Origin: Candidatus Omnitrophota bacterium
Lineage (GTDB): Bacteria; Omnitrophota; Gorgyraeia; Gygaellales; Profunditerraquicolaceae
Reading direction: 5' to 3'
NCBI GenBank assembly: GCA_018812825.1
Contig: JAHJCJ010000069.1
Coordinates: forward strand, 3,825 to 67,824
DNA length: 64,000 bases
Shown here: positions 327 to 61,581 of the stretch, piece by piece
Position numbering within the stretch: the first letter of the stretch is position 1
How the letters are laid out: every line of letters starts with the position of its first letter
The notes under the pieces: model-generated
What the model was told of the DNA's origin: nothing
The model's database searches: none
What the model saw: the letters and a program-made list of their open reading frames with translations, nothing else
Position numbers and translations under genes: made by a program

Positions 327-2231
327 TTACGGATACATCATGGGTTTAAGTTTTAACGCCTGACGTTTCTTATCGATATGTTCAATTATAATCTTTGCCA
401 TTTGTATAGGGTCAGGCTCAAACGCCCATTTCCCTCCGGTAACAGATTCCACCTCTTCGGTTACAAACTTAGTCAGGTTATGTGAACCATGCAAAGGATA
501 GGGATTGCCGAAAACCACCATTGCCCCGGAGGCAACAAAATACCAGCCAATAGCAATAGCCTTCTCAGACATCCATTCGGGTGCAGCGCCCGCCACCGGT
601 AATTCATCAAGACTTTTTCCGATACCGCCTTCTTTTACCATCTCGCAACAAGCAGTAAGTATGCGGGAGTTATCCACGCATGGCCCCAGATGCAGCACCG
701 GCGGACAACCCACAGCCGCGCAAATCTCCTGCAACCCTTTACCCGCGTATTTAAATGCGGCCTCAGGCACCAATAATCCTTCCTTGGCACAGGCAGTTGC
801 TGCACAGCCGGTCTGAACCACCAAAACATCTTTCCTGATAAGCTCTTTTACCAGGGTAATATGCGTTTCGCCGCTTTTTAGCTTAGGGTTATCGCACCCT
901 ACTACGCCGGCCACCCCGCGGATCCTTCCGGAAATAATTGCCTCATTTAACGGACTAAAAGTAGACCTATAGTTTCCGCCCAACATCTTAAAGATATATT
1001 CCGTGGTAAAACCGCCGACCAAATCGCGCGATTCTTTAGGAATATGCACGCGGGATTTATCGCGCTTGGGGAAATTCTCAATGGCCATAGTAATAATATT
1101 CCGGGCAATTTCCATCCCTTTTTCCTCATGGAACTCGATGTACACCGATCCGGGAAAATGCGCGCGGGGATTAGTAGAAACTACCTTCGTATGAAAACAA
1201 GAGGCGATACTCGGAAGAGAGGGCATGACGCACTGAAGATCAACGATCATCAGGTCTACTGCGCCGGTAATCAAAGCAAGCTCCTGCTGCAGGAAATTCC
1301 CGGCTACGCTAACTCCCTTTCGGCTTAATACCTCAAGAGCAGTACAACAAATCCCGGCGAGGTTAATACCGGAGGCACCCTTATCTTTGGCCAGTTGAAT
1401 AAGAGCAGGATCGACACTGGCAGTTGCAATAGCATCGGACAATATGGGCACGTGCCCATGGACAATAATATTTACCTGGTCATCTTTTAATACCCCTAGG
1501 TTTGCTTTTGCACGCAGCGGCTCAGGAGAACCAAAAAGAATATCGGATAAATCCGTGGCAATCATCGAACCGCCCCAACCATCGCTTAACGCCGTACGCA
1601 TCCCTTGCATCATGATAGAACGATAATCATTGTCAACGCCTATATTGGTACGGGCCAACGCCTCTGTCACTTCCCGGTCGATGCCCCGGGGCATGAGGTT
1701 ATTTACGCGCCAGATATCAATCTGCTTTTTAGGCGCCCGATTGGTAAGCATAAGCTCTCCGCTCTGCTGACCATACTCCTTAAAGAGACGCTCTGCTAAT
1801 TCCTCTGCGAGTTTATTGACATCTTTACCCGAGGTTTCCAAGCCATATTCTTTAGCAAAGCGCTCTAATTTTACCGCATCATTGATCTTATACCCTGGCG
1901 CTTTGCCGGTACTGGCTAAGAGCAGCGTTTTAATTATTTCGCGGCCATGATCATTATGACAAGCTGATCCGGCGGCAATATGACGCAAGAGGTTGCGCGC
2001 AGCAATTACATCGGCATCCGCTCCGCATACCCCACACTGCGCTCCCTCACCGAACGGATCAATCCTGCAAGGACCAAGATTACAGTTTTTACAGCATATA
2101 CCCAGCGTCCCAAAACCGCAGTGTGGCTCCTGTTTAAGTTTGCGGTCCCAAATAGTCTGGATAGAAGAATCTTCCGCAATCGCACGCATTTCTTTAGTCG
2201 CTAAATCTCCGGTAAAAATACGCTTGCTCAT
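327..2231 (-). CDS. cooS: Anaerobic Ni-dependent carbon monoxide dehydrogenase catalytic subunit
   Basis: 634 aa. The N-terminal cysteine cluster HCGFGTLGICCKNCNLGPCRI is typical of CooS/AcsA, and the length matches the family. It overlaps cooC by 4 bp, which suggests an operon. Confidence 0.9.
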   Translation of the reverse strand: MSKRIFTGDLATKEMRAIAEDSSIQTIWDRKLKQEPHCGFGTLGICCKNCNLGPCRIDPFGEGAQCGVCGADADVIAARNLLRHIAAGSACHNDHGREIIKTLLLASTGKAPGYKINDAVKLERFAKEYGLETSGKDVNKLAEELAERLFKEYGQQSGELMLTNRAPKKQIDIWRVNNLMPRGIDREVTEALARTNIGVDNDYRSIMMQGMRTALSDGWGGSMIATDLSDILFGSPEPLRAKANLGVLKDDQVNIIVHGHVPILSDAIATASVDPALIQLAKDKGASGINLAGICCTALEVLSRKGVSVAGNFLQQELALITGAVDLMIVDLQCVMPSLPSIASCFHTKVVSTNPRAHFPGSVYIEFHEEKGMEIARNIITMAIENFPKRDKSRVHIPKESRDLVGGFTTEYIFKMLGGNYRSTFSPLNEAIISGRIRGVAGVVGCDNPKLKSGETHITLVKELIRKDVLVVQTGCAATACAKEGLLVPEAAFKYAGKGLQEICAAVGCPPVLHLGPCVDNSRILTACCEMVKEGGIGKSLDELPVAGAAPEWMSEKAIAIGWYFVASGAMVVFGNPYPLHGSHNLTKFVTEEVESVTGGKWAFEPDPIQMAKIIIEHIDKKRQALKLKPMMYP

Positions 2232-2980: not shown

Positions 2981-4671
2981 GATAACCCCACTATCCTACC
3001 TTCAGAATCTATGTCCATCTTCTCGCCAGCCGGATGCGATGGAAGCCCCGGCATCGTACGCATCTGTCCGCACAAAGGATATAAGAAACCCGCTCCCGCA
3101 GCCACCCGTATATCGCGGATGGGAATAGTAAATCCTGTGGGCCTGCCTTTTAATTCGGGATCATGGGAAAGAGATAAATGAGTCTTTGCCATGCAAATAG
3201 GAAATTTATTATAACCCAGTTTAGTATAAAGTTCAATCTTTTTCGTTGCCTCAGGAGAATATTCAACCTTTGCTGCCCCGTATATACTCTTGGCTATGCT
3301 TTCAATCTTTTGCATAATGGGCTCGTCTAGCGAATATAGGCATTTGAACTGACAGGGCTTGCTTGCAGCTTTTATCACTGCCCGGGCCAAGTCTATCCCA
3401 CCCTCTCCGCCTCTTGCCCAAACTTCGCTTACCACTGCATCATCACAGCCGGCAGCTAGAGCTTTTTTTCGCACCGCCTCTATTTCTTTATCCGTATCTG
3501 TGGTAAATTTGTTTATCGCCACTACTACAGGCAGACCAAACAACTTTATATTTTCAATATGTTTCTCCAAGTTTACCGCGCCCTGTTCAACCGCATCAAT
3601 ATTTTCCTTCAACAAATCTTCGCTCAACGGCTTTCCTGCTACCACTTTGAAACGCCCGCTATGCATCTTCAGTGCGCGGATAGAACAAACGATTACCGCT
3701 ACATTGGGCACTAATCCGCTAATACGGCATTTAATATTAAAAGCTTTTTCTGCGCCGCAATCAGCGCCAAAACCGCTCTCGGTAACCACATACTCGCTCA
3801 ATCTAAATGCGATCTTATCGGCAATGATAGAATTATTTCCGTGGGCTATGTTTGCAAACGGCCCTGCATGCACAAAACACGGGGTATGTTCAGTCGTCTG
3901 CATCAACGTAGGTTTGATTGCGTCTTTTAAAAGCACTGCCATTGCTCCGGCAACTTTTAAATCCTCGGTAGTAACCGGTTTTCCGTCATAGGTAAAAGCA
4001 ACCACAATCCTGCCTAAGCGCTGCCGTAAATCTTTGAAATCACTGGCAAGAGCAAGAATAGCCATTACCTCCGATGCCACGGTAATATCAAAACCACTTT
4101 GGCGCACGATACCATCTTCCGCAGACCCCTGGCCAATAGTAATATTACGTAAAGATCTGTCGCTGACATCCACAACTCTTCGCCAGAGTATCTCCGAAGG
4201 GTCTATATTTAATTTATTGCCCCTATAAAGAGAATTATCCATGAAAGCCGCGCAGAGATTATGCGCTAGGCCGACCGCATGCACATCGCCGGTCAAATGC
4301 AGGTTGAAATCCTCCATTGGCACAACCTGAGAATACCCGCCACCTGCAGCGCCGCCTTTTATGCCAAATACAGGCCCCAGCGATGGCTGCCGTATGCAGG
4401 TAGAAACCTTTTTGCCTAACTTGGCCAATCCTAGCGACAAACCAATCGTAGTAACAGTCTTGCCTTCGCCAAGCGGCGTTGGGGTTATGGCAGTGACATA
4501 TATATATTTGCCTTCGGGATTATCTTTTAACCGCTGTAAAACAGAAAGCTCAACCTTCGCCTTATACTTACCATAAAGCTCTAGCTCGTCCTCGCGAATA
4601 CCAATTTTCTCAGCGATCTCTAAAATAGGCCTTAGTTTTATTTCTCGGGAGATCTCGATATCAGTCTTCAT
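2977..4671 (-). CDS. fhs: Formate--tetrahydrofolate ligase (formyl-THF synthetase)
   Basis: 564 aa. The motif PTPLGEGKTVTTIGL and the length are diagnostic for Fhs. Confidence 0.95.
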   Translation of the reverse strand: MKTDIEISREIKLRPILEIAEKIGIREDELELYGKYKAKVELSVLQRLKDNPEGKYIYVTAITPTPLGEGKTVTTIGLSLGLAKLGKKVSTCIRQPSLGPVFGIKGGAAGGGYSQVVPMEDFNLHLTGDVHAVGLAHNLCAAFMDNSLYRGNKLNIDPSEILWRRVVDVSDRSLRNITIGQGSAEDGIVRQSGFDITVASEVMAILALASDFKDLRQRLGRIVVAFTYDGKPVTTEDLKVAGAMAVLLKDAIKPTLMQTTEHTPCFVHAGPFANIAHGNNSIIADKIAFRLSEYVVTESGFGADCGAEKAFNIKCRISGLVPNVAVIVCSIRALKMHSGRFKVVAGKPLSEDLLKENIDAVEQGAVNLEKHIENIKLFGLPVVVAINKFTTDTDKEIEAVRKKALAAGCDDAVVSEVWARGGEGGIDLARAVIKAASKPCQFKCLYSLDEPIMQKIESIAKSIYGAAKVEYSPEATKKIELYTKLGYNKFPICMAKTHLSLSHDPELKGRPTGFTIPIRDIRVAAGAGFLYPLCGQMRTMPGLPSHPAGEKMDIDSEGRIVGLS

Positions 4672-5235
4672 ACCTTACCTTTCTTTCCTAAAGTTTCTTG
4701 GGAATAACAGGAGCGATTGATAGTATAAAACTGCACCTAATCCAATCTGAGCAAACCAGCCCAGATGGGCTAAATTAGAAATTATCTTTCTATTTTTTAT
4801 TGTTTTATCCGCTTCGCCGAAATCGCAAGAAGAGGCGATGCAAAAAAACTTTATGTGTTGCGCTTCAGCTTTACTAAGACTCTTTCACTTACTGCATATT
4901 ATTATACCATATAACTTTAGTTTTTTTAACAAATTTCAGTTAAGCATATCAAGTATACATACAATTTATGTAATTATTGCATTTTATTGTAAAACAAATC
5001 CAGATTAATTCCTAAAAAAATCTGCATTTTCATAAGACTAAGGTATGTGCAAGAATATAACAAAATATTTTTGTTCATGAAACTGATTTGTTATATAACT
5101 TGATTAAAATGCAATCTTAAAATAAACCGTCTATTTCTTTTTTCTACCGATAATGAGTGCGGTGCCGAATTCATCGGCTGCCTAAGATGAAGATTTGCTT
5201 TTCTTGCCGATTACCGTAGAAATTCCTGACTCGTA

Positions 5236-5260
5236 AGCCGTAAAAAAATACGGCTTTTTT
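5236..5260 (+). terminator. Candidate rho-independent terminator oriented on the plus strand (agccgta-aaaaaaa-tacggct followed by T6)
   Basis: A 7-bp GC-containing stem is followed by TTTTTT on the plus strand. No plus-strand gene of 60 aa or more lies upstream, so this may terminate an unannotated small transcript. Confidence 0.3.
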
Positions 5261-5310
5261 GAAACGATAATACCAATCCCATAAGATCTTGAGATTTCAT
5301 CATAATTTTC

Positions 5311-5766
5311 TTAGAGGACCTTCATTTTAGCGCCGACCTTGACTATGCCACCTTTTAAAACTTTTGCGAAGACGCCCTCGCGAGGCATAATACAATCTCC
5401 TGTTTTATAATAGATAGCGCATCTGGAGACACAAGCTTTACCGATCTGGACTATCTCTAGGATTACGCTTCTACCAATCTTTATTTTTGTAGCAAGCGAT
5501 AAACTTTTTAAATCTATGCCTTCGCTGACAATATTCTCAGCAAAATCTCCAGAACCAACACTTAGTCCTCGGGCTCTCATCTTTTCTATAGACTCTTCTG
5601 CCAATAAGCTCACCTGCCGAGGACTACCTGCATGGGCATCATTTTCTATTCCGAAATTTTCCTTAAAAATAGCTACCTTGATGTTTTCTTTCTTAGTTCC
5701 TTTCTCTTTTGACATACAGAGCGCTTTAACCCTGCCGATAATATTATTTCCTCTTATAATGCCCAC
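5311..5766 (-). CDS. MOSC-domain protein (Moco sulfurase C-terminal domain family)
   Basis: 151 aa, the size of a standalone MOSC beta-barrel. It is the last gene of the moa operon. The start may be the internal Met (MSKEKG...) at about 5715, which would remove the overlap with moaC. Confidence 0.6.
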   Translation of the reverse strand: MGIIRGNNIIGRVKALCMSKEKGTKKENIKVAIFKENFGIENDAHAGSPRQVSLLAEESIEKMRARGLSVGSGDFAENIVSEGIDLKSLSLATKIKIGRSVILEIVQIGKACVSRCAIYYKTGDCIMPREGVFAKVLKGGIVKVGAKMKVL

Positions 5767-16158: not shown

Positions 16159-16300
16159 CTCATTTACAACATTAAATTGGAGGGGAATTAAAATCCGGAG
16201 TTACCCGGAAGAAGTATCTTAACAGTCCAAGTCAGATGGGTTGCATTAGAGAATTAAAGGTTATTTTTTCATACTTATATGTACCAGCGTTTCGGTTTTA

Positions 16301-16699
16301 CTAAGACTCTGCCCCTTTTAATCCAAGTTGCATAAGTAGTTCGGCAATCTTTTCTCCATTATCAACGAATAAAACCAAACATACACCCACTGCTTTTCCG
16401 TCTTTAAATTTAACTGCTTCCGCCCTGCCCTCGCCTACGATCTCCTGAATTGGGCTGTCTATTATCTCAATATCCGCAGGAAGCTCTTTATCGGACTTGT
16501 CTAAACTTACAACCTTAACCCCAACTTTATATTTCTCATAAATAAATTCAGCCAAGCTAAAGGCTAATTTAGCTGGGCCATCAATACAAACAGTATCATT
16601 AATAAGATAATCATCTAATTTCTTAAAATCCTCCTCAGAGTTTAGTAAGACTACCCCTTTTTTCCTGGCTCCGGGTATCTGCGGTAAATTGGGCATCAT
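16301..16699 (-). CDS. Hypothetical protein (132 aa) between metF and moeA
   Basis: Intact ORF with an Ala-, Gly- and Val-rich segment, unlikely to be a shadow ORF. I recognise no family. It lacks the Cys4 zinc-ribbon pattern of the MetF partner protein MetV. Confidence 0.4.
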   Translation of the reverse strand: MMPNLPQIPGARKKGVVLLNSEEDFKKLDDYLINDTVCIDGPAKLAFSLAEFIYEKYKVGVKVVSLDKSDKELPADIEIIDSPIQEIVGEGRAEAVKFKDGKAVGVCLVLFVDNGEKIAELLMQLGLKGAES

Positions 16700-16772
16700 A
16701 TGTTTTTATTTAGTGAAATCATTGCACAAAGCGCAAGGGCCCTGCGGGTATTAGTAAACAGGGGTAAACCTT

Positions 16773-17645
16773 TTATATTAATCCACTGGCCTCTAAAACT
16801 CTAGGCACAACTTTATCCCAGCCAATAGACATGATATGGATGCCATTGCACATGGGTTTTAATTCCTTGATTAATCTTGCCGCGATTTCTACGGAAGTGG
16901 CTACTTTGTCTTTAGTTCCTTCCATCTCTTTTATCAGATTATCCGGTACATATACTCCCGCAACATTCTTATTCATATACCTTGCCATGCCGGCTGATTT
17001 TAATAAAACGATGCCAGCCAAAATCGTAGTCTTAAGATGTCTTATCTTGCTTAAGAAATTCTCAAATGTCTTTAAGTCGTAAACGGCTTGTGTTTGGAAA
17101 AAATCCGCTCCTGCTGCTATTTTCTTTTCCATCTTCATAATCTGCGGCTCTAATGGTTCTGAACCCGGATTAACTACTGCTCCCAAGCAGAATTTCGGCA
17201 GTGCTCCGTTTAATTTATTCCCTTTCATATCCAAACCAGATTCTAATTTCCTGGCTACCTGCAATAATTGTACTGAATCTAAATCGAAAACCGGCTTGGC
17301 TTCCGGATGGTCTCCTAAGCTTGGGTGGTCTCCGGTTAAAATTAAAACATTTTCGATTCCTAATGCTGCCGCGGATAATAAATCTGATTGCAGAGCTAGG
17401 CGGTTACGATCACGGCAGGTCAACTGGTAAATTGGCTCAAAGCCTTTTTGCTTAAGTAGGCAACTTACCGCTAAAGATCCCAATCGCATTACTGAACTCT
17501 GTAAATCAGTTACATTTATCGCATCTACCCGGGTACGAATAAGTTCTGCATCTTGAAGCAACTCATTAGTCTCGATCCCCTTGGCCGGGCCGACCTCAGA
17601 GGTAAGTAAAAATTTTCCTGCCTGAATTTTCTCTTTAAATGTCAT
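16773..17645 (-). CDS. metF: 5,10-methylenetetrahydrofolate reductase
   Basis: 290 aa TIM-barrel MTHFR family. Sits in the C1 cluster next to folD and fchA. Confidence 0.85.
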   Translation of the reverse strand: MTFKEKIQAGKFLLTSEVGPAKGIETNELLQDAELIRTRVDAINVTDLQSSVMRLGSLAVSCLLKQKGFEPIYQLTCRDRNRLALQSDLLSAAALGIENVLILTGDHPSLGDHPEAKPVFDLDSVQLLQVARKLESGLDMKGNKLNGALPKFCLGAVVNPGSEPLEPQIMKMEKKIAAGADFFQTQAVYDLKTFENFLSKIRHLKTTILAGIVLLKSAGMARYMNKNVAGVYVPDNLIKEMEGTKDKVATSVEIAARLIKELKPMCNGIHIMSIGWDKVVPRVLEASGLI

Positions 17646-17802
17646 TATATTTTAAATCCTAACGCGTCTGCCCTGCCTTATTTCTCGCAGGGTCCCTTGC
17701 TCAAACCAAAATAAACCATCCGCTAAATATCAATTTCTTAAAATATAAACTTGGTATTCTTTGAGCAGGCATAATCCCGAGAGCAAAATATCAAAATGGC
17801 AC

Positions 17803-18651
17803 CTATTGCCGCGCTTTAGCCGCCTCAACTAAATTACGCATTAACATTGTTACGGTTAAAGGCCCCACGCCTCCAGGGACAGGCGTAATGTAGCTTGCGC
17901 GTTTTTCAGCAGCCTCAAATTCTACATCACCCACGATTTTATCTGCGACTCTATTTATACCTACATCAATAACAACGGCTCCTTCTTTAATCCATTCGCC
18001 TTTAACGAGGCCGGCCTTGCCTACAGCTACAATCAAAATCTCAGCGCCCCTTACATGCTCTTCCAATTTTCCTGCTTTACTAGTTCCAATATGGCATACC
18101 GTAACTGTCGCAAATTTATCCAGCAATAAAAGCGCCAAAGGCTTACCCACTATTTCACTATGCCCCACAACTACAACCTCTTTGCCATATAAATCAATCC
18201 CGCCAGAATTGATCAGTTCCATTATCGAAGCCACAGTACATGGAATAAGTTTTGCCTTGCCGAATAAAATCTTTCCAATATTTTCCGGATGCATGCCTTC
18301 AATATCTTTCTCAGGAGCAATAAATTGGCTGATCTTTTTATAATCTATTGCCGCTGGAAGCGGCATCTGAATAATAATACCATCCACGGCCTTATCTACG
18401 TTAAGCTTAAGAATAAGATCTATCAAAACCTGTTCAGTAATATCCTTGTCCAGCTGGAACAGTTTATAAACTATGCTCAGATTCTCAGCGGCTTTAGCCT
18501 GAGACTTCACATAAGCAGCTGCAGCGGAATTATCTCCTACCAAAATACTGGCTAAAACCGGAGCTTGCTTTAAATCTTGTACCTGGTTCTTTATCTTTTT
18601 TTTAATTTCTTCAGCAACAGCTTTACCCTCTAATAATTTTGCCAACGCCAA
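17803..18651 (-). CDS. folD: Bifunctional methylene-THF dehydrogenase / methenyl-THF cyclohydrolase
   Basis: 282 aa with typical FolD motifs (ILVGDNSAAAAYV, IIQMPLP, VVVGHSEIVGKP). Confidence 0.9.
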   Translation of the reverse strand: MALAKLLEGKAVAEEIKKKIKNQVQDLKQAPVLASILVGDNSAAAAYVKSQAKAAENLSIVYKLFQLDKDITEQVLIDLILKLNVDKAVDGIIIQMPLPAAIDYKKISQFIAPEKDIEGMHPENIGKILFGKAKLIPCTVASIMELINSGGIDLYGKEVVVVGHSEIVGKPLALLLLDKFATVTVCHIGTSKAGKLEEHVRGAEILIVAVGKAGLVKGEWIKEGAVVIDVGINRVADKIVGDVEFEAAEKRASYITPVPGGVGPLTVTMLMRNLVEAAKARQ

Positions 18652-19186
18652 CCTCCATATTCTTACGAATCTTCTGAATAACCTTATTCCTCTGATCTAA
18701 CTCTTTATTTATTACTTTAGTTAGCTTCTCCTGACCCAGCCTCTTTAAATTAATCTCTACATTAAAACAAGCGGAAACAAAAGCTGACTCTAGAAAAACC
18801 GCCGCTACAGCAACATCGCTGATTAAATTGGTGTTACCTTTTTTTATTAATGGCGGGCATAATTTTGCTGCTTCGCAACAGAGCCTCGCCAACATCAACG
18901 GGACATCCAATGCCTTACGTATATCCTTGCTTCGATAGGCAACTACATCTAAATCCACCAGTCCCAGGAAATCTTTTTTTAATTTATCTGACTTTGTTAA
19001 AATTTCCTTTAACTCTGGCTCAAATGCAGTATATTTAGACTTACCCAAAGTAAAGTTAACCACCATGCTGATCAGGCTTGCTCCCATCGCCGCATTCAAT
19101 GCTGCGGCAGATCCTCCTCCGGGAGCAGCAAGCTTAGCGGAAAGATCATCCAGATATTTAGTTAGATTTTGATTTTTATATTCCAT
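18623..19186 (-). CDS. fchA: Methenyltetrahydrofolate cyclohydrolase (FchA / cyclodeaminase-type)
   Basis: 187 aa. The PGGGSAAALNAAMGASL motif belongs to the formiminotransferase-cyclodeaminase / FchA family. Overlaps folD by 29 bp. Confidence 0.75.
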   Translation of the reverse strand: MEYKNQNLTKYLDDLSAKLAAPGGGSAAALNAAMGASLISMVVNFTLGKSKYTAFEPELKEILTKSDKLKKDFLGLVDLDVVAYRSKDIRKALDVPLMLARLCCEAAKLCPPLIKKGNTNLISDVAVAAVFLESAFVSACFNVEINLKRLGQEKLTKVINKELDQRNKVIQKIRKNMEVGVGKIIRG

Positions 19187-19191
19187 AGCCT

Positions 19192-19572
19192 TTAAATGGT
19201 AAAATCAGAGCTTAATTCAAAAGCGTCTTTAATTAAATCAATTTCCGGTAAATCTTGCGCATACAAAAGCGACACTACATCAAAACGTGCCGAATGTTCT
19301 AAGAAATTATTTTCTTTTAAATAACAAATTGCAACTTTAGAAATCTGCCTTTGTTTCAGGGGAGAGACTGCTTCGCCAGGCCCTCCGAATAACTTTGAAT
19401 GCCGCGCCTTTACCTCCACAAAGCAAATAACGCCTTTATCTTCTGCGATTATATCTATTTCGCCAAACTTTGTTTTATAGTTACGCCTGATAATCTTATA
19501 ACCCTGAACCTTTAGGAATTTTACTGCTGCATCTTCAGCTTGTTTGCCAAATTCTAGGTTTTTTCCAGGCAC
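19192..19572 (-). CDS. yraN: YraN-family (UPF0102) endonuclease
   Basis: 126 aa. The motif GEIDIIAEDKGVICFVEVKAR is typical of YraN. Confidence 0.8.
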   Translation of the reverse strand: MPGKNLEFGKQAEDAAVKFLKVQGYKIIRRNYKTKFGEIDIIAEDKGVICFVEVKARHSKLFGGPGEAVSPLKQRQISKVAICYLKENNFLEHSARFDVVSLLYAQDLPEIDLIKDAFELSSDFTI

Positions 19573-20168
19573 TTTAAAAAACTTTTCCGGTGAATGGCCG
19601 ATGGTCCGATCCTTCTTAAAATCATGCGATGCTCGGCCGTAGGGTAACCCTTATGTTTATCAAAACCATAATCAGGATAAATCTTATGGTATTTTTCCAT
19701 AAGGCCATCTCTATACACTTTAGCCAAAATGGAAGAAGCAGCAATGCTTAAGGATTTTGCATCCCCCTTAACAATACTCTGATAAGGAAGAGCTAATTTA
19801 AATCGCATATTGCCGTCAATAAGTATGAATACGCGCTTTAGCTCACTAGGCCCTAGTTCCATGGCTAATCTAGATATCGCCCTTCGCATAGCTAAAATTG
19901 TAGCTTGCAGGATATTTATCCGATCAATCTGTTTATGACCTACTACTGCAATGGCGTACAAAGACTTGTTTTTTATTTCAAAGAACGCATTTCTTCTTTT
20001 TATGGGGCTTAATTTCTTGGAATCATCAATCCGGTTACTGAAACAAAAATCCTTTAACAGCACTGCCGCAGCTACTACCGGGCCGGCTAACGGCCCTCTA
20101 CCTGCCTCGTCTACACCAATAACTAAATCATAGCCTTTTTCTTTTAGTTTTCTTTCGTATCGCAGCAC
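19554..20168 (-). CDS. rnhB: Ribonuclease HII
   Basis: 204 aa. The N-terminal motif GVDEAGRGPLAGPVVAAAV is diagnostic. Confidence 0.9.
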   Translation of the reverse strand: MLRYERKLKEKGYDLVIGVDEAGRGPLAGPVVAAAVLLKDFCFSNRIDDSKKLSPIKRRNAFFEIKNKSLYAIAVVGHKQIDRINILQATILAMRRAISRLAMELGPSELKRVFILIDGNMRFKLALPYQSIVKGDAKSLSIAASSILAKVYRDGLMEKYHKIYPDYGFDKHKGYPTAEHRMILRRIGPSAIHRKSFLKCLEKT

Positions 20169-20524
20169 TAGTTTGCTTTTTCTTCTTTGCTCTCTATCTT
20201 AGTGGCATGTTTGCCAATTTTACTTCTTAAGTAATAAAGCTTGGCCCTTCTTACCTTTCCCGAACGGAGAATTTCAATACGCTCAATACTCGGAGAATAT
20301 AGCGGAAATACGCGCTCGATCCCCTCGCCGAACGAAACTTTTCTTACCGTAAAATTAAGTTTTATCCCCGAACCGCTTTTTGCAATTACCACGCCCTCGA
20401 ATGGATGTAAACGGAATTTATCCGCTCCTTCCGAGATCTTGGTAAGCACCTTCACCGTATCTCCGACATTAAACTGCGGCATCTCTTTCTTCGTAAACCC
20501 TGACTCAATTGTTTTAATATCCAT
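20168..20524 (-). CDS. rplS: 50S ribosomal protein L19
   Basis: 118 aa, L19 family by sequence and length. A Shine-Dalgarno sequence (aaaggagg) lies upstream. Confidence 0.95.
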
Positions 20525-20534
20525 TACTGCTGCC

Positions 20535-20627
20535 TCCTTTAAATGAGCGCTTAACTTACGAACACGATAGTGTGAGTAAGTTAATGCGCGAATTTGAGCA
20601 CCTTATGCTCTTGTTTAGCGAAATCCC
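20535..20627 (-). promoter_or_regulatory. Conserved structured 5' leader element (copy 1) upstream of rplS; the main hairpin lies at 20547..20589
   Basis: About 90 nt, roughly 90% identical to a second copy at 47188..47277 upstream of purA. Both copies sit at the same distance from the SD and start codon. The 17-bp stem carries compensatory substitutions between the two copies. Confidence 0.5.
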
Positions 20628-20683
20628 GCCGAATATGCCAAAATTATCGTAGAGAATTTTGGCATAGCCTCTGAGACGGGATC

Positions 20684-22479
<1,796 letters not shown>

Positions 22480-22504
22480 TTATCTTAACAGGTCCTGTCG
22501 AGGC

Positions 22505-22645
22505 TTGCCTCTCGCATCACCGCTTGCTCGCCCCAGCGTGGCTCGCTGCGCTCCGGCAAAAATTTCGCTCTGCCTAAACATGTATTATGGGCAACCGTGC
22601 CCGCTCAATTTTTGAGATGCTGCTCGAGTTCAAGCCTCGCCACCC
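22505..22645 (+). repeat. Left arm of an imperfect inverted repeat (about 140 bp) flanking the low-GC HEPN gene; contains the hairpin gggca-accg-tgccc
   Basis: The reverse complement of 23517..23665 aligns to this segment at roughly 70-75% identity. Shared blocks include caccgct, ccccagcg, gcgctctgcct, ggcaaccgtgcccgc and aacaagcc. Confidence 0.55.
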
Positions 22646-22808
22646 GTTAACAAAATTAGAACCCCCACCTTTATTTATTAGAATATACTGTTCTAAATCA
22701 ACAATTTATTATTGACTGCGAAACAGATATTTACGCCCTAGCTTATGGTCTATTGTGCCCAAAACGTACCCATTTTATTTCTATGACAGGGAACAATTAT
22801 AAAAACTT

Positions 22809-23405
22809 TTATTTAATAATATCGTTTTCCCGAATATACTCGTTTAACTTCCGTAAATGTTTATCTAAAAAAGTGTATTTATCTTTAAATGATCGCATAA
22901 AACTGTCATCGAATTTATCTTCTTTTTTTCGACCTTCGTAGTATTCTATATAAAAGGCTTCTCTATCACCATCATAAAATATAGAACCATGCGCTACTTT
23001 GTTTCTAATTAAAATAAGGTCATTTAGATCTTTCCTGACTTGCTTAAAAATGTCGGAAGAAATTACAGATAATTTATCTTTAAAAAAATCAGTGATATCG
23101 GATAGCAATTTTCTTTTCAGCATAAAATTAAAGAATTCTTTCTCCAGAATTAGTCCTTTAAACCAGCCATGCCTCTTGTAATCTTTCCCAAAAAATAAAT
23201 GACATACGCATATGTTGAGGGAATTTTCTAAATCAAGAGAGTCTGCAATAATTATGCTTCTACGATTATTTAATTTATTATAGTCCTCTAAAATCTTTTT
23301 AATATTCTTCGAACACTTTTCATTGGAGTTATGTATTATTACCCCTCCCACATTGTATTCTGATACCGTTTTTGCAGATACAGCAGATCTATTATTTTTC
23401 TTCAT
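22809..23405 (-). CDS. HEPN-domain protein, Abi-like (candidate abortive-infection / RNase-toxin type)
   Basis: 198 aa, Lys- and Asn-rich, low GC. The C-terminal Rx4H motif (IRNKVAHGS) is the HEPN signature seen in the Abi_2/AbiD-F-like families. It has its own SD (aaaggtgag). No cognate MNT or antitoxin ORF is apparent. Confidence 0.5.
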   Translation of the reverse strand: MKKNNRSAVSAKTVSEYNVGGVIIHNSNEKCSKNIKKILEDYNKLNNRRSIIIADSLDLENSLNICVCHLFFGKDYKRHGWFKGLILEKEFFNFMLKRKLLSDITDFFKDKLSVISSDIFKQVRKDLNDLILIRNKVAHGSIFYDGDREAFYIEYYEGRKKEDKFDDSFMRSFKDKYTFLDKHLRKLNEYIRENDIIK

Positions 23406-23516
23406 CGTATACTCACCTTTCTAATTGGAACTAATGAAGTTACTTTGGTGATACATGTATTTCTTAATTAGAGCACCTTGCCCTACGCCTGTTGAATGTA
23501 CTATTCAGCGGATGAC

Positions 23517-23665
23517 TTGGCTTGTTCCGGAGCGCACGTGAGAATTTTGCGCGGGCACGGTTGCCCCGCTAAAAACATCAGGCAGAGCGCAAAATTCTGG
23601 CCGAGCGAAGATTTTCCTCGCTGGGGAAAATCGAGCGGTGCGCGGAGGAACAAGACAAGGCAGAC
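23517..23665 (+). repeat. Right arm of the imperfect inverted repeat flanking the HEPN gene; contains the hairpin gggca-cggt-tgccc
   Basis: See the left arm. It ends 1-2 bp before the queA stop codon. Confidence 0.55.
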
Positions 23666-23666
23666 G

Positions 23667-24659
23667 CTAAATAATCAGCATTGCGTCGCCATAACTGTAA
23701 AATCTATATTTTTTCTCAACTGCTTCCTGATAAGCCTGCTTCATCAGCTTCTCGCCGCCAAAAGCGCAGGCCAGCATAAAAAGCGTAGTCATCGGTAAAT
23801 GAAAGTTAGTTAACAGGCAATCGGTTAATTTAAACTTATACCCTGGATATATAAATAAATCTGTGTTGCCTTCTTTCCGGCCATCAGCATAAGTCTCCAG
23901 CGTCCTTAAAGCAGTCGTACCAACAGCAATAATCCGTCTTTTATCAACTTTAGCCTGTTTAAGTTTAGCAATGGTTTCATCAGGCACTAAAAAATACTCC
24001 GGCTCCATCTTATGTTCGGCAATGTTTTCGCATCTTACCGGCCTAAACGTCCCTAATCCAACATGCAAAGTTACATAAACCAGCTTAATGCCTTTGGAGC
24101 AAATGTCTTCAAGCAACTTTTCAGTAAAATGCAGCCCGGCAGTCGGCGAGGCAAGCGCGCCTTCATTTTTTGCGTAAACCGTCTGATAATAAACTTTATC
24201 TGAATCAACGGACGGGCGTTTTATGTAAGGCGGCAAAGGTACAACGCCATAACTGTAAATTATATCCGCATCAGGTTGTTTAAAGCTGATTTGCCCCCGG
24301 GCGCTCAAAACCCCGACGACATTTCCGCCGGCGAAAATAACCTTTTCGCCGATCTTCGTCCGGCTGGGCTGAACCAGACAGGAGAATGTTGCGCCGTTTA
24401 AACGCCGGGTCAGCAGAATCTCAACCCTGCCCCCGGTAGTTTTATTACCCATTAAACGACAATGCAGAACCTTGGTATCATTAAGAACTAGTAAGTCATT
24501 TTCTTTAAAAAAATTACCGATATCTTTAAATACGCCGTGGGAGATATTACAGGTTTGCCGATTTACAACCAAGAGCCTGGCCTCTTCTCTATTTTCCAAA
24601 GGATACTGAGCAACCAACTCTTTAGGAAGCGGATAATCAAATCCGGAGAGTCTAAGCAT
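23667..24659 (-). CDS. queA: S-adenosylmethionine:tRNA ribosyltransferase-isomerase
   Basis: 330 aa. The N-terminal motif FDYPLPKELVAQYPLENREEARLLVV and the length match QueA. Confidence 0.9.
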   Translation of the reverse strand: MLRLSGFDYPLPKELVAQYPLENREEARLLVVNRQTCNISHGVFKDIGNFFKENDLLVLNDTKVLHCRLMGNKTTGGRVEILLTRRLNGATFSCLVQPSRTKIGEKVIFAGGNVVGVLSARGQISFKQPDADIIYSYGVVPLPPYIKRPSVDSDKVYYQTVYAKNEGALASPTAGLHFTEKLLEDICSKGIKLVYVTLHVGLGTFRPVRCENIAEHKMEPEYFLVPDETIAKLKQAKVDKRRIIAVGTTALRTLETYADGRKEGNTDLFIYPGYKFKLTDCLLTNFHLPMTTLFMLACAFGGEKLMKQAYQEAVEKKYRFYSYGDAMLII

Positions 24660-45102: not shown

Positions 45103-45795
45103 TTATTTAAGATTATCTTCAGATTCTTTGAGCTCAAATGAATCCGTATTAAGATTATCCTCAGGGGCCTTCAATCCAGAGGACCCCTTGAAACCACCTT
45201 TAACTTTAGAAATATTAGGCAAGATGACTATCTCTACCCTGCGGTTCTGCTTACGGCCATCTATAGTTTCATTAGAATCTACCGGCCGGTATTCTCCGTA
45301 ACCAATTGCAGACAAACGTTCAGGCGCGATTCCCTGGTTATTGACTAAATAGTGCAAGACACTTAAGGCCCGAGCAGTAGAAAGCTCCCAATTAGACTTC
45401 CAACCGGAAAGCTTAATCGGGACATTATCGGTATGACCTTCAATACCCACGTTAAACTGCCCCATATCGTCTTTTAATATCGCCGCTACCTTATCTAATA
45501 AAGGATAGGCCTCAAGCCTGATCTTGGATTTTCCGGAATCAAACAAAAGGTCTCCAACCACGGTAATGACCAGCCCCTTCTCCATCATCTGGAGCTTTAT
45601 CTGTTTATCATTTATCTCCTGCCCGAGCTTCTGTTCAAGCATACTCTTGGAGCGCAAAAGTTCATCCAGCTGAGCATTTAATTCCTCAATTTTCTGGGCA
45701 TCAGAGCGCCTGCCTTTCTGGAAAACAAAACTACACCCTGCCAGGCTTAAAGTTATAAATAAAACTAATGTAAATTTAAGCAAATTATTTCTCAT
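45103..45795 (-). CDS. OmpA/MotB-family peptidoglycan-associated lipoprotein
   Basis: 230 aa. Signal peptide with lipobox LAGC, a coiled-coil, and an OmpA C-terminal domain (TDNVPIKLSGWKSNWELSTARA). Confidence 0.8.
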   Translation of the reverse strand: MRNNLLKFTLVLFITLSLAGCSFVFQKGRRSDAQKIEELNAQLDELLRSKSMLEQKLGQEINDKQIKLQMMEKGLVITVVGDLLFDSGKSKIRLEAYPLLDKVAAILKDDMGQFNVGIEGHTDNVPIKLSGWKSNWELSTARALSVLHYLVNNQGIAPERLSAIGYGEYRPVDSNETIDGRKQNRRVEIVILPNISKVKGGFKGSSGLKAPEDNLNTDSFELKESEDNLK

Positions 45796-45912
45796 CTTGA
45801 CTCTCCTTGGTTTTGGTTATCGGTAACCAAACTACGGCCCCTACCTGTTTAATTGAAATTTAAATATAACATAACCTCTTCTTGTAGTCAAGGGTTTTAT
45901 CCAGTCTACGGC

Positions 45913-47277
<1,365 letters not shown>

Positions 47278-47334
47278 GAGCTTATCACGAAAATATAAAG
47301 ATATTTTCGTGATACCTAAGCGAAGGATCTTTTT

Positions 47335-48573
47335 CTATGGTGTCATTGTAAAAATCTTATGCGCGATATCCGGATACCTTGCAATAAAATTCAACTCATC
47401 ATCAACCAACGGCTTCTGATTATGCACATTAGCATACCGGACCAGTTCCAATATGCGCGTAGCCTCGGCATCATCCTTAAAAGCCACCTCTAATTTTTCA
47501 TAAACATTGCGGAACCCCTTAATCCCGGAATATTCACCGGCAGTAATCTTCCTGCCCGTCTCAATTATCTCCGGCTCTCCGCGGCCAAGCTCCTCGTAAT
47601 CATAAAGCTCATAATTACGCCTGTCTTTTAATGCCCCGTCGGCATGGATCCCGGATTCATGGGCAAAGGCATTAGCCCCCACCCCAGGCTGGTTAATAGG
47701 AATAGGCACGCCAAAAGCATAAGAAGCATATTTACAAATCTTCCAGGCCATCTTTAAATCCACTTTTTCATCTAAATGATAATCCTGCATTCCCTGGCCG
47801 AATTTAATCGCTAAAATTACCGAAACCAGATCCGCATTACCCGCACGCTCACCCATACCATTAACACAGGTGTTAATATATGCATCTACCCCGGCATCAT
47901 TGGCTGCTTTGGCTCCGGCAATAGAATTAGCCACTACCAAACCCAAATCATTATGACAATGCACCTCGATAGGAATCCCCACTGCTTCGGCCAATAATTT
48001 TATACGTTCGTATATACTAAAAGGAATATCGCATCCTAATGTATCGCAGTAACGGATCCTGTTGGCTCCTGCCTTTTTTGCCTTAACAGCAAACTCGACG
48101 AGATATTCTATGTCGGTACGCGAGGCATCTTCAGAATTTACTCCGATAGTCTCTGCTCCTAATTTTATCGCCTCGCCTACCGCATCCTCCATCTCCTGGA
48201 TTACCGATTGGTGATCCAGCTTGCCTTTAAATTTATGAATAATCATCTGATCACTGGTTGAGATGGAAAGATTAATGTACTTTAAATGCGGCACTAGCGC
48301 AAAAGCAGCCCTTACATCTTCTTTTGTCGCGCGTAACCAACCGCTTAGCCTGATATTAGAAAATCCACCTAATTTAACCAGCTCTAAATTGGCATTCAGG
48401 TAATTTGTTTCATGACGCGTAAGTGGAAAACCAAACTCCGACTGAAAAACCCCCATCTTGTCCAGATACCAGTTAATCATAGTCTTTTGCAGTTTAGACA
48501 AACAAATACGCGAAGTCTGCACCCCGTCGCGATTAGTTACATCGAACAAATAAATCTTCGGTTTATGCGCCAT
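47335..48573 (-). CDS. HMGL-like acyltransferase of the 2-isopropylmalate / homocitrate / citramalate synthase family (short form without the LeuA regulatory domain)
   Basis: 412 aa. Motifs FDVTNRDGVQT (a DTTLRDGEQ variant) and HCHNDLGLVVANSIAGAKAANDAG (HxH metal site). Substrate specificity cannot be decided from sequence. Confidence 0.7.
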   Translation of the reverse strand: MAHKPKIYLFDVTNRDGVQTSRICLSKLQKTMINWYLDKMGVFQSEFGFPLTRHETNYLNANLELVKLGGFSNIRLSGWLRATKEDVRAAFALVPHLKYINLSISTSDQMIIHKFKGKLDHQSVIQEMEDAVGEAIKLGAETIGVNSEDASRTDIEYLVEFAVKAKKAGANRIRYCDTLGCDIPFSIYERIKLLAEAVGIPIEVHCHNDLGLVVANSIAGAKAANDAGVDAYINTCVNGMGERAGNADLVSVILAIKFGQGMQDYHLDEKVDLKMAWKICKYASYAFGVPIPINQPGVGANAFAHESGIHADGALKDRRNYELYDYEELGRGEPEIIETGRKITAGEYSGIKGFRNVYEKLEVAFKDDAEATRILELVRYANVHNQKPLVDDELNFIARYPDIAHKIFTMTP

Positions 48574-53747: not shown

Positions 53748-54607
53748 TCTGCTTCTCTTAATAAAAATTCCATTACCTTAGCCAACATATGCTCATCTAT
53801 AGGAATGCCCTCTTTTCTGGCAATCTGAGCTAAAACTAAATAAACCTTAACCTGCTTTTTAGCCTGTGGCTGGATCCCTTCCAAAATCACCTTTTCCTCT
53901 TCCTCAATTTTATCCCGAGGTATGCCCTTCATCGCCAAATCCAATTTTGTCTGCCGCAGCATATCCTGAGCCTGTCGACTAACCAGGCTCTCCGGTAGTT
54001 TAAATTCTAAATCCTTTAGGAGATTATCAATCAATTCATTTTCAATACGCTGGCGTTCCTGATTTTCCTTAGTAATAAAAATCTGCCTCTCCACCGCCTT
54101 CTCAAATTCCGCCAGATTAGGATACCCCAGAGAACGGCTAAACTTATCATCTAACGTTTCTGTCTTGCGCGACTGCTTAACAGAATCAATCTGCTTTTTT
54201 ATCTCGTCGGCAGTTACCGTCGTTACTTTATAATTTATCTTCTGCTTCTTATAATCCTTAATCGCAATCTCCGGAGTCACCTCTACAACCGCTTTAAAAG
54301 AAAGATTATTGCGGTCCAGCTTCACATCAGCTATCTGCGGCAATTCGATTACATCAAGCTTTTCTGCCGTAATTGCCTGGTTATACACATCAGGGACCAG
54401 CTCCTTTAATACCTGTTCATGGACCGAAGCGGCGTAATGCTTCTCTAAAACATCCCGCGGAGCCTTACCCGGACGAAAACCCGGTACTTTAGCCTCTTTG
54501 GCAATTTGAGAAAAAACCTCTTCAAATTTATTTTTTACTAGTTCACCGCTCACCGCTACGCTTAATTCACATTTAATACTATCTAACTTCTTTACTTCGG
54601 TTTTCAT
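53729..54607 (-). CDS. tig: Trigger factor, short form lacking the PPIase domain
   Basis: 292 aa. The N-terminal ribosome-binding signature GFRPGKAP joins directly to the C-terminal chaperone arm. The roughly 100-aa FKBP insert is absent. Confidence 0.8.
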
Positions 54608-54705
54608 AACAATCCTTTCATATATTAATTATGCGATATCCCCGCTGTACTGATTATCAAATCCTTCGCTTGACTCCTTTACTACTTAAAGCTGAGTGAA
54701 CAAGA

Positions 54706-54808
54706 TACCCGCTCAGATACTGTGTAAAAAATTTTTAAAAAATTTTTTACACATTCGCGGGTATGAGTTCGGCCAAACGATTTAGCTTCGCTTTCGCTCG
54801 CTAAATCG
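54706..54808. promoter_or_regulatory. Nested inverted repeats between lptB and tig: atacccgc...gcgggtat enclosing a 33-nt A6T5A6T6 palindrome (54721..54753), plus a 9-bp stem hairpin cgatttagc/gctaaatcg (54778..54808)
   Basis: Read directly from the sequence. Candidate terminator, operator or bent-DNA element. Confidence 0.4.
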
Positions 54809-54817
54809 TGGCCTCAC

Positions 54818-55540
54818 TCACATTCTGAACTTCTCGCCTAAATAAATCTGGCGCGCACGCGGATGGTTAATCAGTTCATGCGCCGAACCTGAGATAAGGA
54901 TAGAACCATCAGCGATCAAATAAGCCCGGTCAGTTATAGCCAAGGTCTCGCGCACATTATGATCAGTTAATAAAATCCCCAGCCCCTTTGCCTTTAGTTC
55001 TTTAATGATCTCCTGGGCTTCATTGACTACTATAGGGTCAATGCCGGAAAAAGGCTCATCCAAAAGTATAAAAGAAGGGTTGGTTACCAACGCGCGGGTA
55101 ATCTCAAGACGCCTTCTTTCCCCTCCGCTTAAAGTATATGCCTTATTTTTCGCTAAATGCGCGATATTCAATTCTTCAAGCAGAGAAACCAGCCTGCGCT
55201 TTCTCTGTGAATGGCTCAAAGGTAGAGTTTCCAAGATTGCGTTTATATTTTCCGCAACCGTCAGTTTGCGAAATATCGAGGCTTCCTGGGATAGATATCC
55301 TATGCCAAAACGCGCGCGCTCATGAATAGGAAGATTCGTAATTTCATGATTGTCAAAAACAATCGTTCCCTTATTAGGCGCAACTATGCCTACGATCATA
55401 TAGAAAGTCGTGGTCTTTCCCGCGCCATTAGGCCCCAATAAGCCAACAATCTCTCCCCGCTTAACCGTAATATCTACGCCATTAACAACAATACGGCCAT
55501 CATATGATTTAGCTAAACCCTTAGTTTCTAAAAGCTGCAT
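54818..55540 (-). CDS. lptB: LPS export ABC transporter ATP-binding protein
   Basis: 240 aa. Walker A GPNGAGKTT and ABC signature LSGGERRR. Sits in the conserved kdsD-kdsC-lptA-lptB context. Confidence 0.9.
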   Translation of the reverse strand: MQLLETKGLAKSYDGRIVVNGVDITVKRGEIVGLLGPNGAGKTTTFYMIVGIVAPNKGTIVFDNHEITNLPIHERARFGIGYLSQEASIFRKLTVAENINAILETLPLSHSQRKRRLVSLLEELNIAHLAKNKAYTLSGGERRRLEITRALVTNPSFILLDEPFSGIDPIVVNEAQEIIKELKAKGLGILLTDHNVRETLAITDRAYLIADGSILISGSAHELINHPRARQIYLGEKFRM

Positions 55541-61409: not shown

Positions 61410-61581
61410 TACAGAGATCCTTCGCTTCGCTCAGGACATTAAGCCCTTGATCTTTAATGCCAAAGGCTTAATAATTTTATCACAATTAAAGATTAATTCA
61501 AGCACCTTATAGTCTTTATCTAGCGCAGTCCCTGTGAGCGTAAGCGAACAGGGACAAACCTAGTCATCAACGTTATAAAAT

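Follow-up and report, generated by a model that had tools for sequence, protein, structure and literature searches.

A family of mosaic palindromic intergenic elements in Candidatus Omnitrophota, with two copies upstream of rplS and purA

The repetitive extragenic palindromic sequences and bacterial interspersed mosaic elements (REP/BIME) of enterobacteria are made up of palindromic units joined by conserved linker motifs; they are typically present in hundreds of copies per genome, together with a cognate REP-associated tyrosine transposase (RAYT). RNase III sites lie between the early genes of phage T7, sites for PPR10 are common to the chloroplast atpI-atpH and psaJ-rpl33 spacers, and near-identical short sequences are found upstream of unrelated genes in the case of the putative mobile promoters and the Correia elements of Neisseria. 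Intergenic stem-loops which flank processed sites set transcript ratios and are gained or lost in operon evolution (PMC4423207), while processing just upstream of the ribosome-binding sites (RBSs) in ribosomal-protein operons raises both stability and translation (PMC5499594). Here we describe an intergenic element of an uncultured Candidatus Omnitrophota bacterium, found in a stretch of 64,000 nt (GCA_018812825.1, JAHJCJ010000069.1, positions 3,825–67,824; hereafter the window) in which one copy lies directly upstream of rplS and another directly upstream of purA. The evidence supports well the conclusion that these two leaders are members of a previously undescribed, Omnitrophota-specific family of mosaic palindromic intergenic elements. 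The closest known kind in anatomy is the REP/BIME class, and the features of that class which we examined are found here.

The gene for the 118-aa ribosomal protein L19 (rplS, 20168..20524) and that for the 422-aa adenylosuccinate synthetase (purA, 45913..47181) are both on the minus strand, and their upstream neighbors on the same strand specify, by Pfam, TrmD and an HMGL-like synthase, respectively. From GGATTTCGC through AAAGGA the two leaders, both minus strand, are 91% identical, which agrees with the figure of about 90% in the preliminary description of this DNA. Eight of the 92 positions differ: two are in a linker, two in the loop that caps the long hairpin, and the other four constitute two compensatory pairs, TTAAC/GTTAA against TTGAC/GTCAA and ACAC/GTGT against ATAC/GTAT, just as had been reported. 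RNAfold returned for both copies exactly the small hairpin and the 4+9+4 bp hairpin that had been proposed (z = -4.2 and -3.3). Two 28-mers of the element matched only these two sites of the window with up to 3 mismatches, and a shuffled sequence gave no match; the pair is the sole substantial repeat in the window.

What had been described as the 5' untranslated regions of two genes are indeed leaders, though they prove to be complete intercistronic spacers running from a stop codon to a Shine-Dalgarno (SD) sequence. The element extends about 60 nt further 5' than the leader originally delimited, reaching the upstream stop codon, and this extension is a hairpin, which we call P1. The sequence of P1 is unrelated in the two copies (type A before rplS, type B before purA), and both close on a common GGATTT which is at once the 3' arm of P1 and the opening of the conserved stretch. 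The full layout is therefore stop codon, P1, core (GGATTTCGCTAAACAAGAGCATAAGGTGCTCAAATTC), the long hairpin P3, a tail TCATTTA, SD and ATG. The element is about 160 nt in size and the spacers are 150–200 nt long.

In the rplS copy (all coordinates minus strand) type A P1 occupies 20621..20684, with a basal stem AGATCCCGTC/GGCGGGATTT and an apical hairpin ATGCCAAAATT..AATTTTGGCAT in the minimum free energy fold, and begins on the final base of the stop codon of trmD (20684..20686). The core lies between P1 and P3 at 20590..20626, its first bases being the 3' arm of P1. A discrete 27-nt module (TTCGCTAAACAAGAGCATAAGGTGCTC, 20596..20622), which is missing from otherwise intact elements of relatives, contains the small hairpin P2 (GAGCA 20606..20610, loop 20601..20605, TGCTC 20596..20600). 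P3 (20547..20589) has the form GCGC-A-TTAACTTAC-TC-ACAC-TATC-GTGT-TC-GTAAGTTAA-GCGC, and is followed in 20522..20546 by the tail (TCATTTA, 20540..20546), the SD (AAAGGAGG, 20533..20540) and the start codon (20522..20524). The purA copy begins 4 nt past the TAG stop (47335..47337) of the HMGL-like gene with type B P1 (47271..47330), AGATCCT-TC-GCTTA..ATCACGAAAATAT..ATATTTTCGTGAT..AAGC-TC-AGGATTT. Its core is at 47240..47276 (27-nt module 47246..47272, P2 47246..47260), its P3 at 47198..47239 (TTGACTTAC/GTAAGTCAA, ATAC/GTAT), and its tail, SD and start in 47179..47197 (TCATTTA 47191..47197, SD AAGGA 47186..47190, start 47179..47181), again on the minus strand. The window trmD ends in ..KKIG* up to the TAA abutting P1 (20684..20700) and those of relatives end in ..LLKK*; insertions can reshape the end of the upstream gene.

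The element is not tied to these two genes: it is a mosaic family found at 24 junction types across Omnitrophota. A 20-mer of the core matched eight loci among species-representative genomes, seven of them in metagenome-assembled genomes of Candidatus Omnitrophota and one in a genome labeled Planctomycetales, whose L19 is 88% identical to that of the window. A degenerate pattern with the stems of the small hairpin left free found 19 metagenome contigs, and a model search (profile hidden Markov model and covariance model, CM, over 398 kb of DNA) added further copies. The rplS and purA loci of relatives were sampled via protein homologs, which contributed unbiased alleles. The loci of other genomes and contigs compared with the window are numbered L001–L038. 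Altogether 31 nonredundant core-bearing copies were collected, essentially all from Candidatus Omnitrophota, at a density of about one per 15–30 kb of scanned DNA. A match in L001 (Thermodesulfobacteriota) was set aside, as it consists of the 20-mer alone between unrelated flanks and about one chance match is expected in the collection.

The genes downstream, checked by Pfam except for infA and rpsM, which were recognized from their open reading frame (ORF) translations, specify L19 (7 lineages), PurA, S11, S13 (rpsM), S16, L2, IF1 (infA), SecY, Fmt, an RluD-like protein, PFK, PPDK, MetK, IlvD, ArgH, RibH, ATP synthase b, PhoH, a LOG-like protein, PAC2, a pilin, an ABC ATPase, an acyltransferase and a small membrane protein. 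A 4.7-kb piece of the spc/alpha operon (L026) carries three copies, in the order rplO-[E]-secY-adk-map-[E]-infA-rpmJ-[E]-rpsM, where [E] is the element, and in L002 it lies inside rpsM-[E]-rpsK. Searches of 2.9 million viral contigs gave no match, the literature searched for the core sequence and for Omnitrophota motifs held nothing relevant, and exact-protein look-ups of the window RplS and PurA returned no record.

The long hairpin, which had been put forward as a selected structure, is supported as such by the family. In 12 copies P3 is 98.8% paired and 12 of its 21 pairs have changed on both sides; none of 500 shuffles reached the observed covariation, and slid controls gave values of about zero. 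Its sequence sub-type and length vary across the family, from 4 bp in L027 to more than 25 bp at most, and it is absent in L021; this range suggests a self-contained variable stem which keeps core and RBS adjacent. By RNAalifold (9 copies each) 11 of 22 pairs of P1 type A and 8 of 19 pairs of type B are compensatory. P1 and P3 are thus imperfect palindromes with pairing kept by compensating changes, as are REP/BIME units. The original argument from covariation to selection is borne out as regards pairing; that the constraint acts on the RNA rather than on a DNA palindrome is not proven, and wobble pairs are too few for an asymmetry of G·U against A·C between the strands to serve as proof of selection at the RNA level.

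The small hairpin fared differently, since no pair of P2 has changed on both sides and its 5' arm is lost without compensation in several copies (AAAAA, AAGCA or GAACA) while TGCTC stays constant. Three changes are wobble-compatible (L026, L029, L034), and the loop occurs as TAAGG, TATTG, CAAGG, TAAG and TAGGG. The conservation of this region is instead one of sequence. Mean identity of the core among the seven rplS-locus copies is 94%, against 62% for third codon positions and 82% for the whole of rplS in the same lineages, and GGATTTCG and TG(C/T)TCAAATTC are invariant everywhere.

The preliminary description had taken random orientations and copies inside genes as signs of a generic repeat. 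Many more copies do exist, yet each of the core-bearing ones is intergenic and co-oriented with both of its flanking genes (31 of 31; none inside a gene, none reversed), and divergent or convergent neighbors were found beside none of them. In every case a same-strand upstream ORF ends 26–139 nt before the core and a same-strand gene begins after the tail, and in many copies no more than a few nt separate P1 from the upstream stop codon (0 and 4 nt in the window). If one assumes that 70–75% of neighboring gene pairs are co-directional, which is an assumption of ours and not a measurement, the probability that 24 independent junctions should all be co-directional on one side is about 10^-3 to 10^-4; the core-bearing copies are co-directional on both sides, beyond what this one-sided calculation covers. 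The core-less copies are likewise all intergenic, as are REP/BIME elements, and are found in both orientations (4 forward, 3 reversed). Since core-less units occur reversed and core-bearing ones never do, it is the core that is strand-specific. Most copies are followed by a proximal SD of their own, and in 7 of 31 (at infA, rplB, secY, fmt, phoH and rluD-like genes) the AUG comes directly after CAUUUA or CAUUAA, without an SD.

Modules of the element have come and gone, and been exchanged, from one junction to another and among close relatives. At trmD-rplS a full unit is present in the window and in L029, L033, L034, L008, L009 and L017. The junction is empty (..TAGAAAGGAGtaacagtaATG) in L032 and L036, whose L19 proteins are 79% and 87% identical to that of the window; it holds an unrelated 69-nt spacer in L031 (82%), and P1 plus P3 without a core in L030 (92%) and L035 (86%), where the sequence reads GGCGGAAT|AAATTC.. 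and CGGGAT|TAATTC.. across the site of the missing module. The 27-nt module is missing with essentially equal boundaries from these two rplS loci and from the infA and secY junctions of L002, both of which are full in L026 and L027. The rpsM-rpsK junction is filled in L002 and empty in L026, and rpmJ-rpsM is filled in L026 and empty in L002. At purA, L037 has an empty junction (ccaTAAaatgAGGAAAAAATG) and L038 an unrelated one, so that the window purA copy is a lineage-specific gain; this copy is closer to the rplS copy of L008 (P1 type B, P3 of the TTGAC type) than to the rplS copy of the window. Comparison of empty with filled junctions shows that the SD and its spacer to the ATG belong to the gene, and that insertion occurs between stop codon and SD. 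In three of four such pairs, purA not among them, an extra AAGG stands to the left of the element, whose removal restores a TAAGGAG junction; this AAGG may be a target duplication or an old SD.

Arrays of the form reversed P3, P1, core, P3 occur in L011 and L022, in L025 the upstream gene (from its sequence presumably a class II aldolase) has a reversed unit behind its stop codon, and lone reversed P1 units stand in the window spacer that corresponds to lptB-tig (54707..54762) and in the lptB-tig spacers of L038 (similar) and of L037 (type B). With P1 in three types (A, B and C), a 27-nt module and a P3 that may each be present or absent, and alternating orientations, the element is a mosaic in the REP/BIME sense. 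In L011 (about 1103..1140) the reversed tail overlaps the last codons of the upstream argG, and in both L011 and L012 these codons are built from the reversed tail and half a hairpin. Just upstream of the metK-junction element of L025, at about 5254..5300, a CCTGAC..GTCAGG hairpin and after it ATTTTAAAGGAATG make up a second, partial unit, which suggests tandem or nested insertions.

The resemblance to REP/BIME extends to hairpin-forming imperfect palindromes confined to spacers after stop codons or between cistrons, to mosaics with conserved linkers and alternating arrays (L011, L022, L025), to variation in presence and absence, and to compensating stem changes. Of the functions which the preliminary description had left open (a stabilizing or translational leader, an autoregulatory site, a REP-like dispersed element) the last comes closest in anatomy. 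There is no sequence similarity to REP/BIME, the phylum is a different one, and conservation is greatest in the linker instead of the palindrome; units with a core always run in the direction of transcription and abut the downstream RBS or AUG, and their density is modest. Stable hairpins flanking a single-stranded intercistronic site near the RBS, which the predicted folds give here, are also the anatomy of operons whose RNA is selectively processed and stabilized (SRPS) in Clostridium cellulolyticum (PMC4423207), E. coli (PMC10667835) and the ribosomal-protein operons of a methanogen (PMC5499594). These too are operons for ribosomal proteins and enzyme complexes whose stem-loops are gained and lost in evolution; their stem-loops are locus-specific and lack a dispersed conserved sequence, while processing in the Omnitrophota family is something that we infer.

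As read here, the element shares with the T7 RNase III and PPR10 sites a recurring conserved intercistronic signal, protective end structures and a possible enhancement of downstream translation. It is not homologous to them, and its conserved part is predicted to be single-stranded between two hairpins. Like the Correia elements and mobile promoters it forms hairpins, would be co-transcribed, is polymorphic between strains and stands upstream of unrelated genes; unlike them it lacks recognizable promoter hexamers, terminal inverted repeats and a clear TA duplication, and its orientation is strict. With L19_leader and Fibro-purF it has in common a position upstream of rplS and of a purine-biosynthesis gene, without being gene-specific.

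Rfam 15 gave no match to the window at gathering thresholds, and at E<=10 the region 20480..20720 gave only chance-level matches, the best with 17 bits against a threshold of 90. No family, including L19_leader (RF00556), Fibro-purF (RF02974; 11.7 bits against a threshold of 60, chance level) and the self-cleaving ribozymes, reached its gathering score. A riboswitch or gene-specific autoregulatory leader was also rejected: covariation is confined to the two peripheral hairpins, with none in P2, the 24 downstream genes are heterogeneous, and sister lineages can differ in having or lacking the core at one and the same gene. ARAGORN found no tRNA or tmRNA in the window. Mimicry of an anticodon loop by P2 (G36-G37, near trmD) was dismissed by eye, since its stem falls short of the length required, U33 is not retained and the element also occurs away from trmD. 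Also by eye, a mini-ORF from the GUG of the core shows conservation of neither frame nor stop codon, and an in-frame AUU start upstream of rplS appears coincidental, the frame being open in the rplS copy and closed by TAA in the purA copy. A split or hairpin-bridged SD of the kind known from phage T4 genes 38 and 25 does not fit, since the AAGG of the core becomes ATTG in the SD-less secY copy of L026 and AAG in L033.

Neither window copy contains a sigma-70 hexamer pair, and none recurs at a consistent position in 28 copies. Sigma-54, sigma-28 and extracytoplasmic function (ECF) promoters were rejected by eye, GG-N10-GC being off by one and absent where TTCAC replaces TTCGC. No intrinsic terminator was found on the minus strand in 20400..20800 or 47100..47450, and P1 is not one, because it lacks a U-tract, the sequence after it being AUUUCGCUAAA, or AUAAAUUC where the core is missing. 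Terminal inverted repeats of the type found in miniature inverted-repeat transposable elements (MITEs) were not seen by eye, the ends AGATCC.. and ..GCTCATTTA not being complementary. Canonical promoters (TTGACA-17-TATAAT-like) do occur in the same lineage. In L010 the entire element falls within a transcribed leader, since TTGACA-17-TAATAT stands upstream of P1, and in L023 TTGACA-17-TATAGT stands downstream of the element. In the window, the purA to OmpA-like gene spacer (45795..45913) holds a TTGACT-17-TATATT promoter conserved in L037 and L038; in L038 this promoter is preceded by a decayed P1-plus-core unit.

We might suggest, at a probability of roughly 0.45, that this REP/BIME-like mosaic element is co-transcribed in operons and serves as a module for mRNA processing, stabilization and presentation of the RBS. 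The unit would be transcribed within the operon mRNA in the order stop codon, P1, core (GGAUUUCGCUAAACAAGAGCAUAAGGUGCUCAAAUUC), P3, tail UCAUUUA, and then the SD of the downstream gene or directly its AUG. P1, at the stop codon, would form a cap at the 3' end which shields the upstream cistron from exonucleases. The core, rich in purines and in A/U and single-stranded between two clamps, would be the site of recognition or cleavage by a trans-acting RNA-binding protein or endoribonuclease; the sequence ..CAA|AUUC.., surviving even in core-less alleles, fits the RN|WUU preference of an RNase E-type enzyme. After processing P3 would be a protective 5' hairpin, and by locking the inserted sequence upon itself it would leave the tail and SD or AUG accessible. 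The AUGs without an SD, among them those of the essential infA, secY and rplB, fit such a role for P3, by which the region of the start codon would stay free of structure. In sum, the downstream cistron would become independent of the upstream one in its stability and translation, as in SRPS.

Several points weigh against this proposal. Cleavage, the RNA ends and even co-transcription are inferred, and a generic RNase site needs no 37 or so invariant bases. The element is dispensable, given the empty rplS junctions of L032 and L036, the empty purA junction of L037 and the P1-P3 units without a core. A simple logic of boosting the downstream gene is not universal, because some of the upstream genes (rpsM, rpmJ, rplW, atpE) are highly expressed, and in L023 and at the purA-ompA spacer of L038 the element cannot serve the downstream RBS directly, because a canonical promoter follows. 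Finally, G·U pairs number 16 of about 480 in P3 in the sense strand against 13 in the antisense, and 30 against 10 in P1. Whichever strand is read, then, pairing in the hairpins is Watson-Crick almost throughout, so that what is constrained could be a palindrome in the DNA, as in REP, rather than the RNA. A bolder version of the proposal, which we regard as unlikely, takes the element for a mobile, self-insulating "cistron junction cassette" which inserts at stop-codon/SD junctions, and its invariant core of 27–37 nt for the address of a dedicated sequence-specific RNA-binding protein or endonuclease which cuts operon mRNAs and so sets downstream stability and translation.

A near-identical sequence before unrelated genes, always facing the downstream one, might be expected of an internal promoter cassette resembling the putative mobile promoters, with the core recognized by an unidentified sigma factor or activator, transcription starting near AAATTC, P3 as a 5'-terminal stabilizer and P1 ending or insulating the upstream transcript. 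TAnnnT is mostly retained where the core varies (TAAGGT, TATTGT, TATGAT), in L021 a leader of about 30 nt that includes an SD comes after the core, as is typical of the interval between promoter and RBS, and the core is an optional addition to P1 and P3, as a promoter module could be. We nevertheless think this improbable. A pair of -35 and -10 elements of the sigma-70 type is lacking in the window copies and not consistent in the 28 copies, the other sigma classes fit poorly by eye, and some 37 contiguous conserved bases, spacer included, are unlike a sigma-dependent promoter. Further, in none of the 24 junction types is the gene upstream of the core a divergent one, where about one quarter would be expected of a free-standing promoter; canonical promoters are present in the same lineages and even adjoin the element (upstream in L010, downstream in L023), and P1, without a U-tract, would not terminate the upstream transcript intrinsically.

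The almost perfect Watson-Crick pairing on both strands would suit a selfish or neutral mobile palindromic repeat which prefers stop-codon/SD junctions and whose position and orientation reflect where it can insert and be tolerated, its hairpins and core being kept for mobilization, perhaps through a REP-associated HUH transposase with hairpins of single-stranded DNA as its substrate. Presence and absence vary among close relatives at the rplS, purA, rpsK, rpsM, secY and infA junctions, the L008 rplS copy resembles the window purA copy more than it does the window rplS copy, mosaic units alternate in orientation (L011, L022, L025), and the extra AAGG in three of four empty/filled pairs could be a target-site duplication. 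Its conserved part, however, is the center and not the ends or hairpins, unlike MITEs, REPINs (paired REP sequences) or IS200/IS605 ends, terminal inverted repeats were not seen by eye, core-bearing units are never reversed although core-less ones are, and the 2.9 million viral contigs hold none. Moreover, orthologous rplS copies persist with intact pairing across lineages near synonymous saturation, which suggests purifying selection at the level of the host or else constant gene conversion. On balance this explanation too seems to us doubtful. Least probable of all, in our estimate, is an operator for a global trans-acting regulator, in which the core would bind a protein (of the CsrA, Hfq or Nus type) or a small ligand and coordinate the translation of growth-related genes, much like a leader or riboswitch common to a whole regulon. 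The extreme conservation of sequence between variable stems and the preponderance of translation, energy and biosynthesis among the downstream genes would suit it, as would the A/G-rich core with what we take to be ARN-like triplets and GGA/AGG motifs, and the tail GCUCAUUUAA, which presumably resembles boxA (GCUCUUUAA) with one extra base. Against this, the core is optional at the essential infA, secY and rplS, and sister lineages may have nothing at the junction; the genes concerned are a mixed set (pilin, ABC ATPase, PAC2, acyltransferase), no pairing between core and SD hints at a switch, variation is seen in the candidate motifs (AAGG loop, P2 stem), and Rfam gave no match.

Elsewhere in the window two minus-strand spacers hold what are probably degenerate relatives of the element, to judge from weak scores. 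One (16700..16772, minus strand; nhmmer E=0.005, CM E=3), between the MTHFR gene and the next minus-strand ORF, has a CCTTGC..GCAA hairpin and then TGATTTCACTAAATAAAAACATATGATGCCCAATTTACC. The 132-aa ORF at 16301..16699 (minus strand) has no Pfam match, and its true start is uncertain because the listed start ATGATG falls inside degenerate core-like sequence. The other (61410..61581, minus strand; nhmmer E=0.05, CM E=0.6), between the genes for a GT9 glycosyltransferase and a deoxyhypusine-synthase-like protein, has a GTCCCTG..CAGGGAC hairpin, TGCGCTAGATAAAGACTATAAGGTGCTTGAATTAAT and further hairpins. The lone type-A P1-like palindromic unit at 54707..54762 (plus strand; ACCCGC-TCAGA..ATTC-GCGGGT) is opposite in orientation to the surrounding minus-strand genes. 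It sits in a 210-nt minus-strand spacer (54607..54818) which matches by sequence the lptB-tig spacers (ABC_tran to trigger factor) of L037 and L038. This spacer is strongly structured (-70 kcal/mol) and also holds a GGCCACGATTTAGC..GCTAAATCGTTTGGCC hairpin.

Two further minus-strand spacers, 22473..22809 (335 nt, -97 kcal/mol) and 23405..23667 (261 nt, -85 kcal/mol), are very long and highly structured. Their long palindromes share a AGAATTTTGCGC..GCGCAAAATTCT flavor with the apical stems of P1, and they may be members of a wider superfamily of palindromic repeats, or noncoding RNA genes. The longest gap in the window without an ORF of at least 90 aa is an A/T-rich stretch of 639 nt at 4671..5311 (minus strand). 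Around rplS the gene order tgt-trmD-rplS-rnhB-yraN-FTCD_C-folD-MTHFR is kept between the window (about 16300..22500) and the syntenic loci L030–L036. In relatives it continues into the genes for carbon monoxide dehydrogenase/acetyl-CoA synthase (Wood-Ljungdahl and one-carbon genes), and the queA-tgt interval carries variable inserts (HNH, DNA methylase, DUF2971).

The Omnitrophota are uncultured, and to our knowledge nothing is known of their post-transcriptional control of expression. The element provides a compact, searchable signal which marks the punctuation of the S10-spc-alpha, trmD-rplS, atp and rib operons, and the allelic series of empty junctions, hairpins only, and hairpins with core amounts to a set of natural genetic controls. 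For annotation, spacers of 150–200 nt run the risk of being mistaken for promoters or small RNAs, or of giving rise to miscalled start codons, and a family model is advisable. If the repeat is selfish, it would be one which targets the RBS junctions of essential genes and yet leaves those genes working. A core with a dedicated binding factor, if such it has, would represent a new system of sequence-specific recognition of RNA (or DNA). And should the element be the mobile, self-insulating cassette considered above, it would be a bacterial counterpart of the chloroplast PPR10-type sites and a natural analog of the synthetic RiboJ-type insulators, spreading through the housekeeping operons of a whole phylum.

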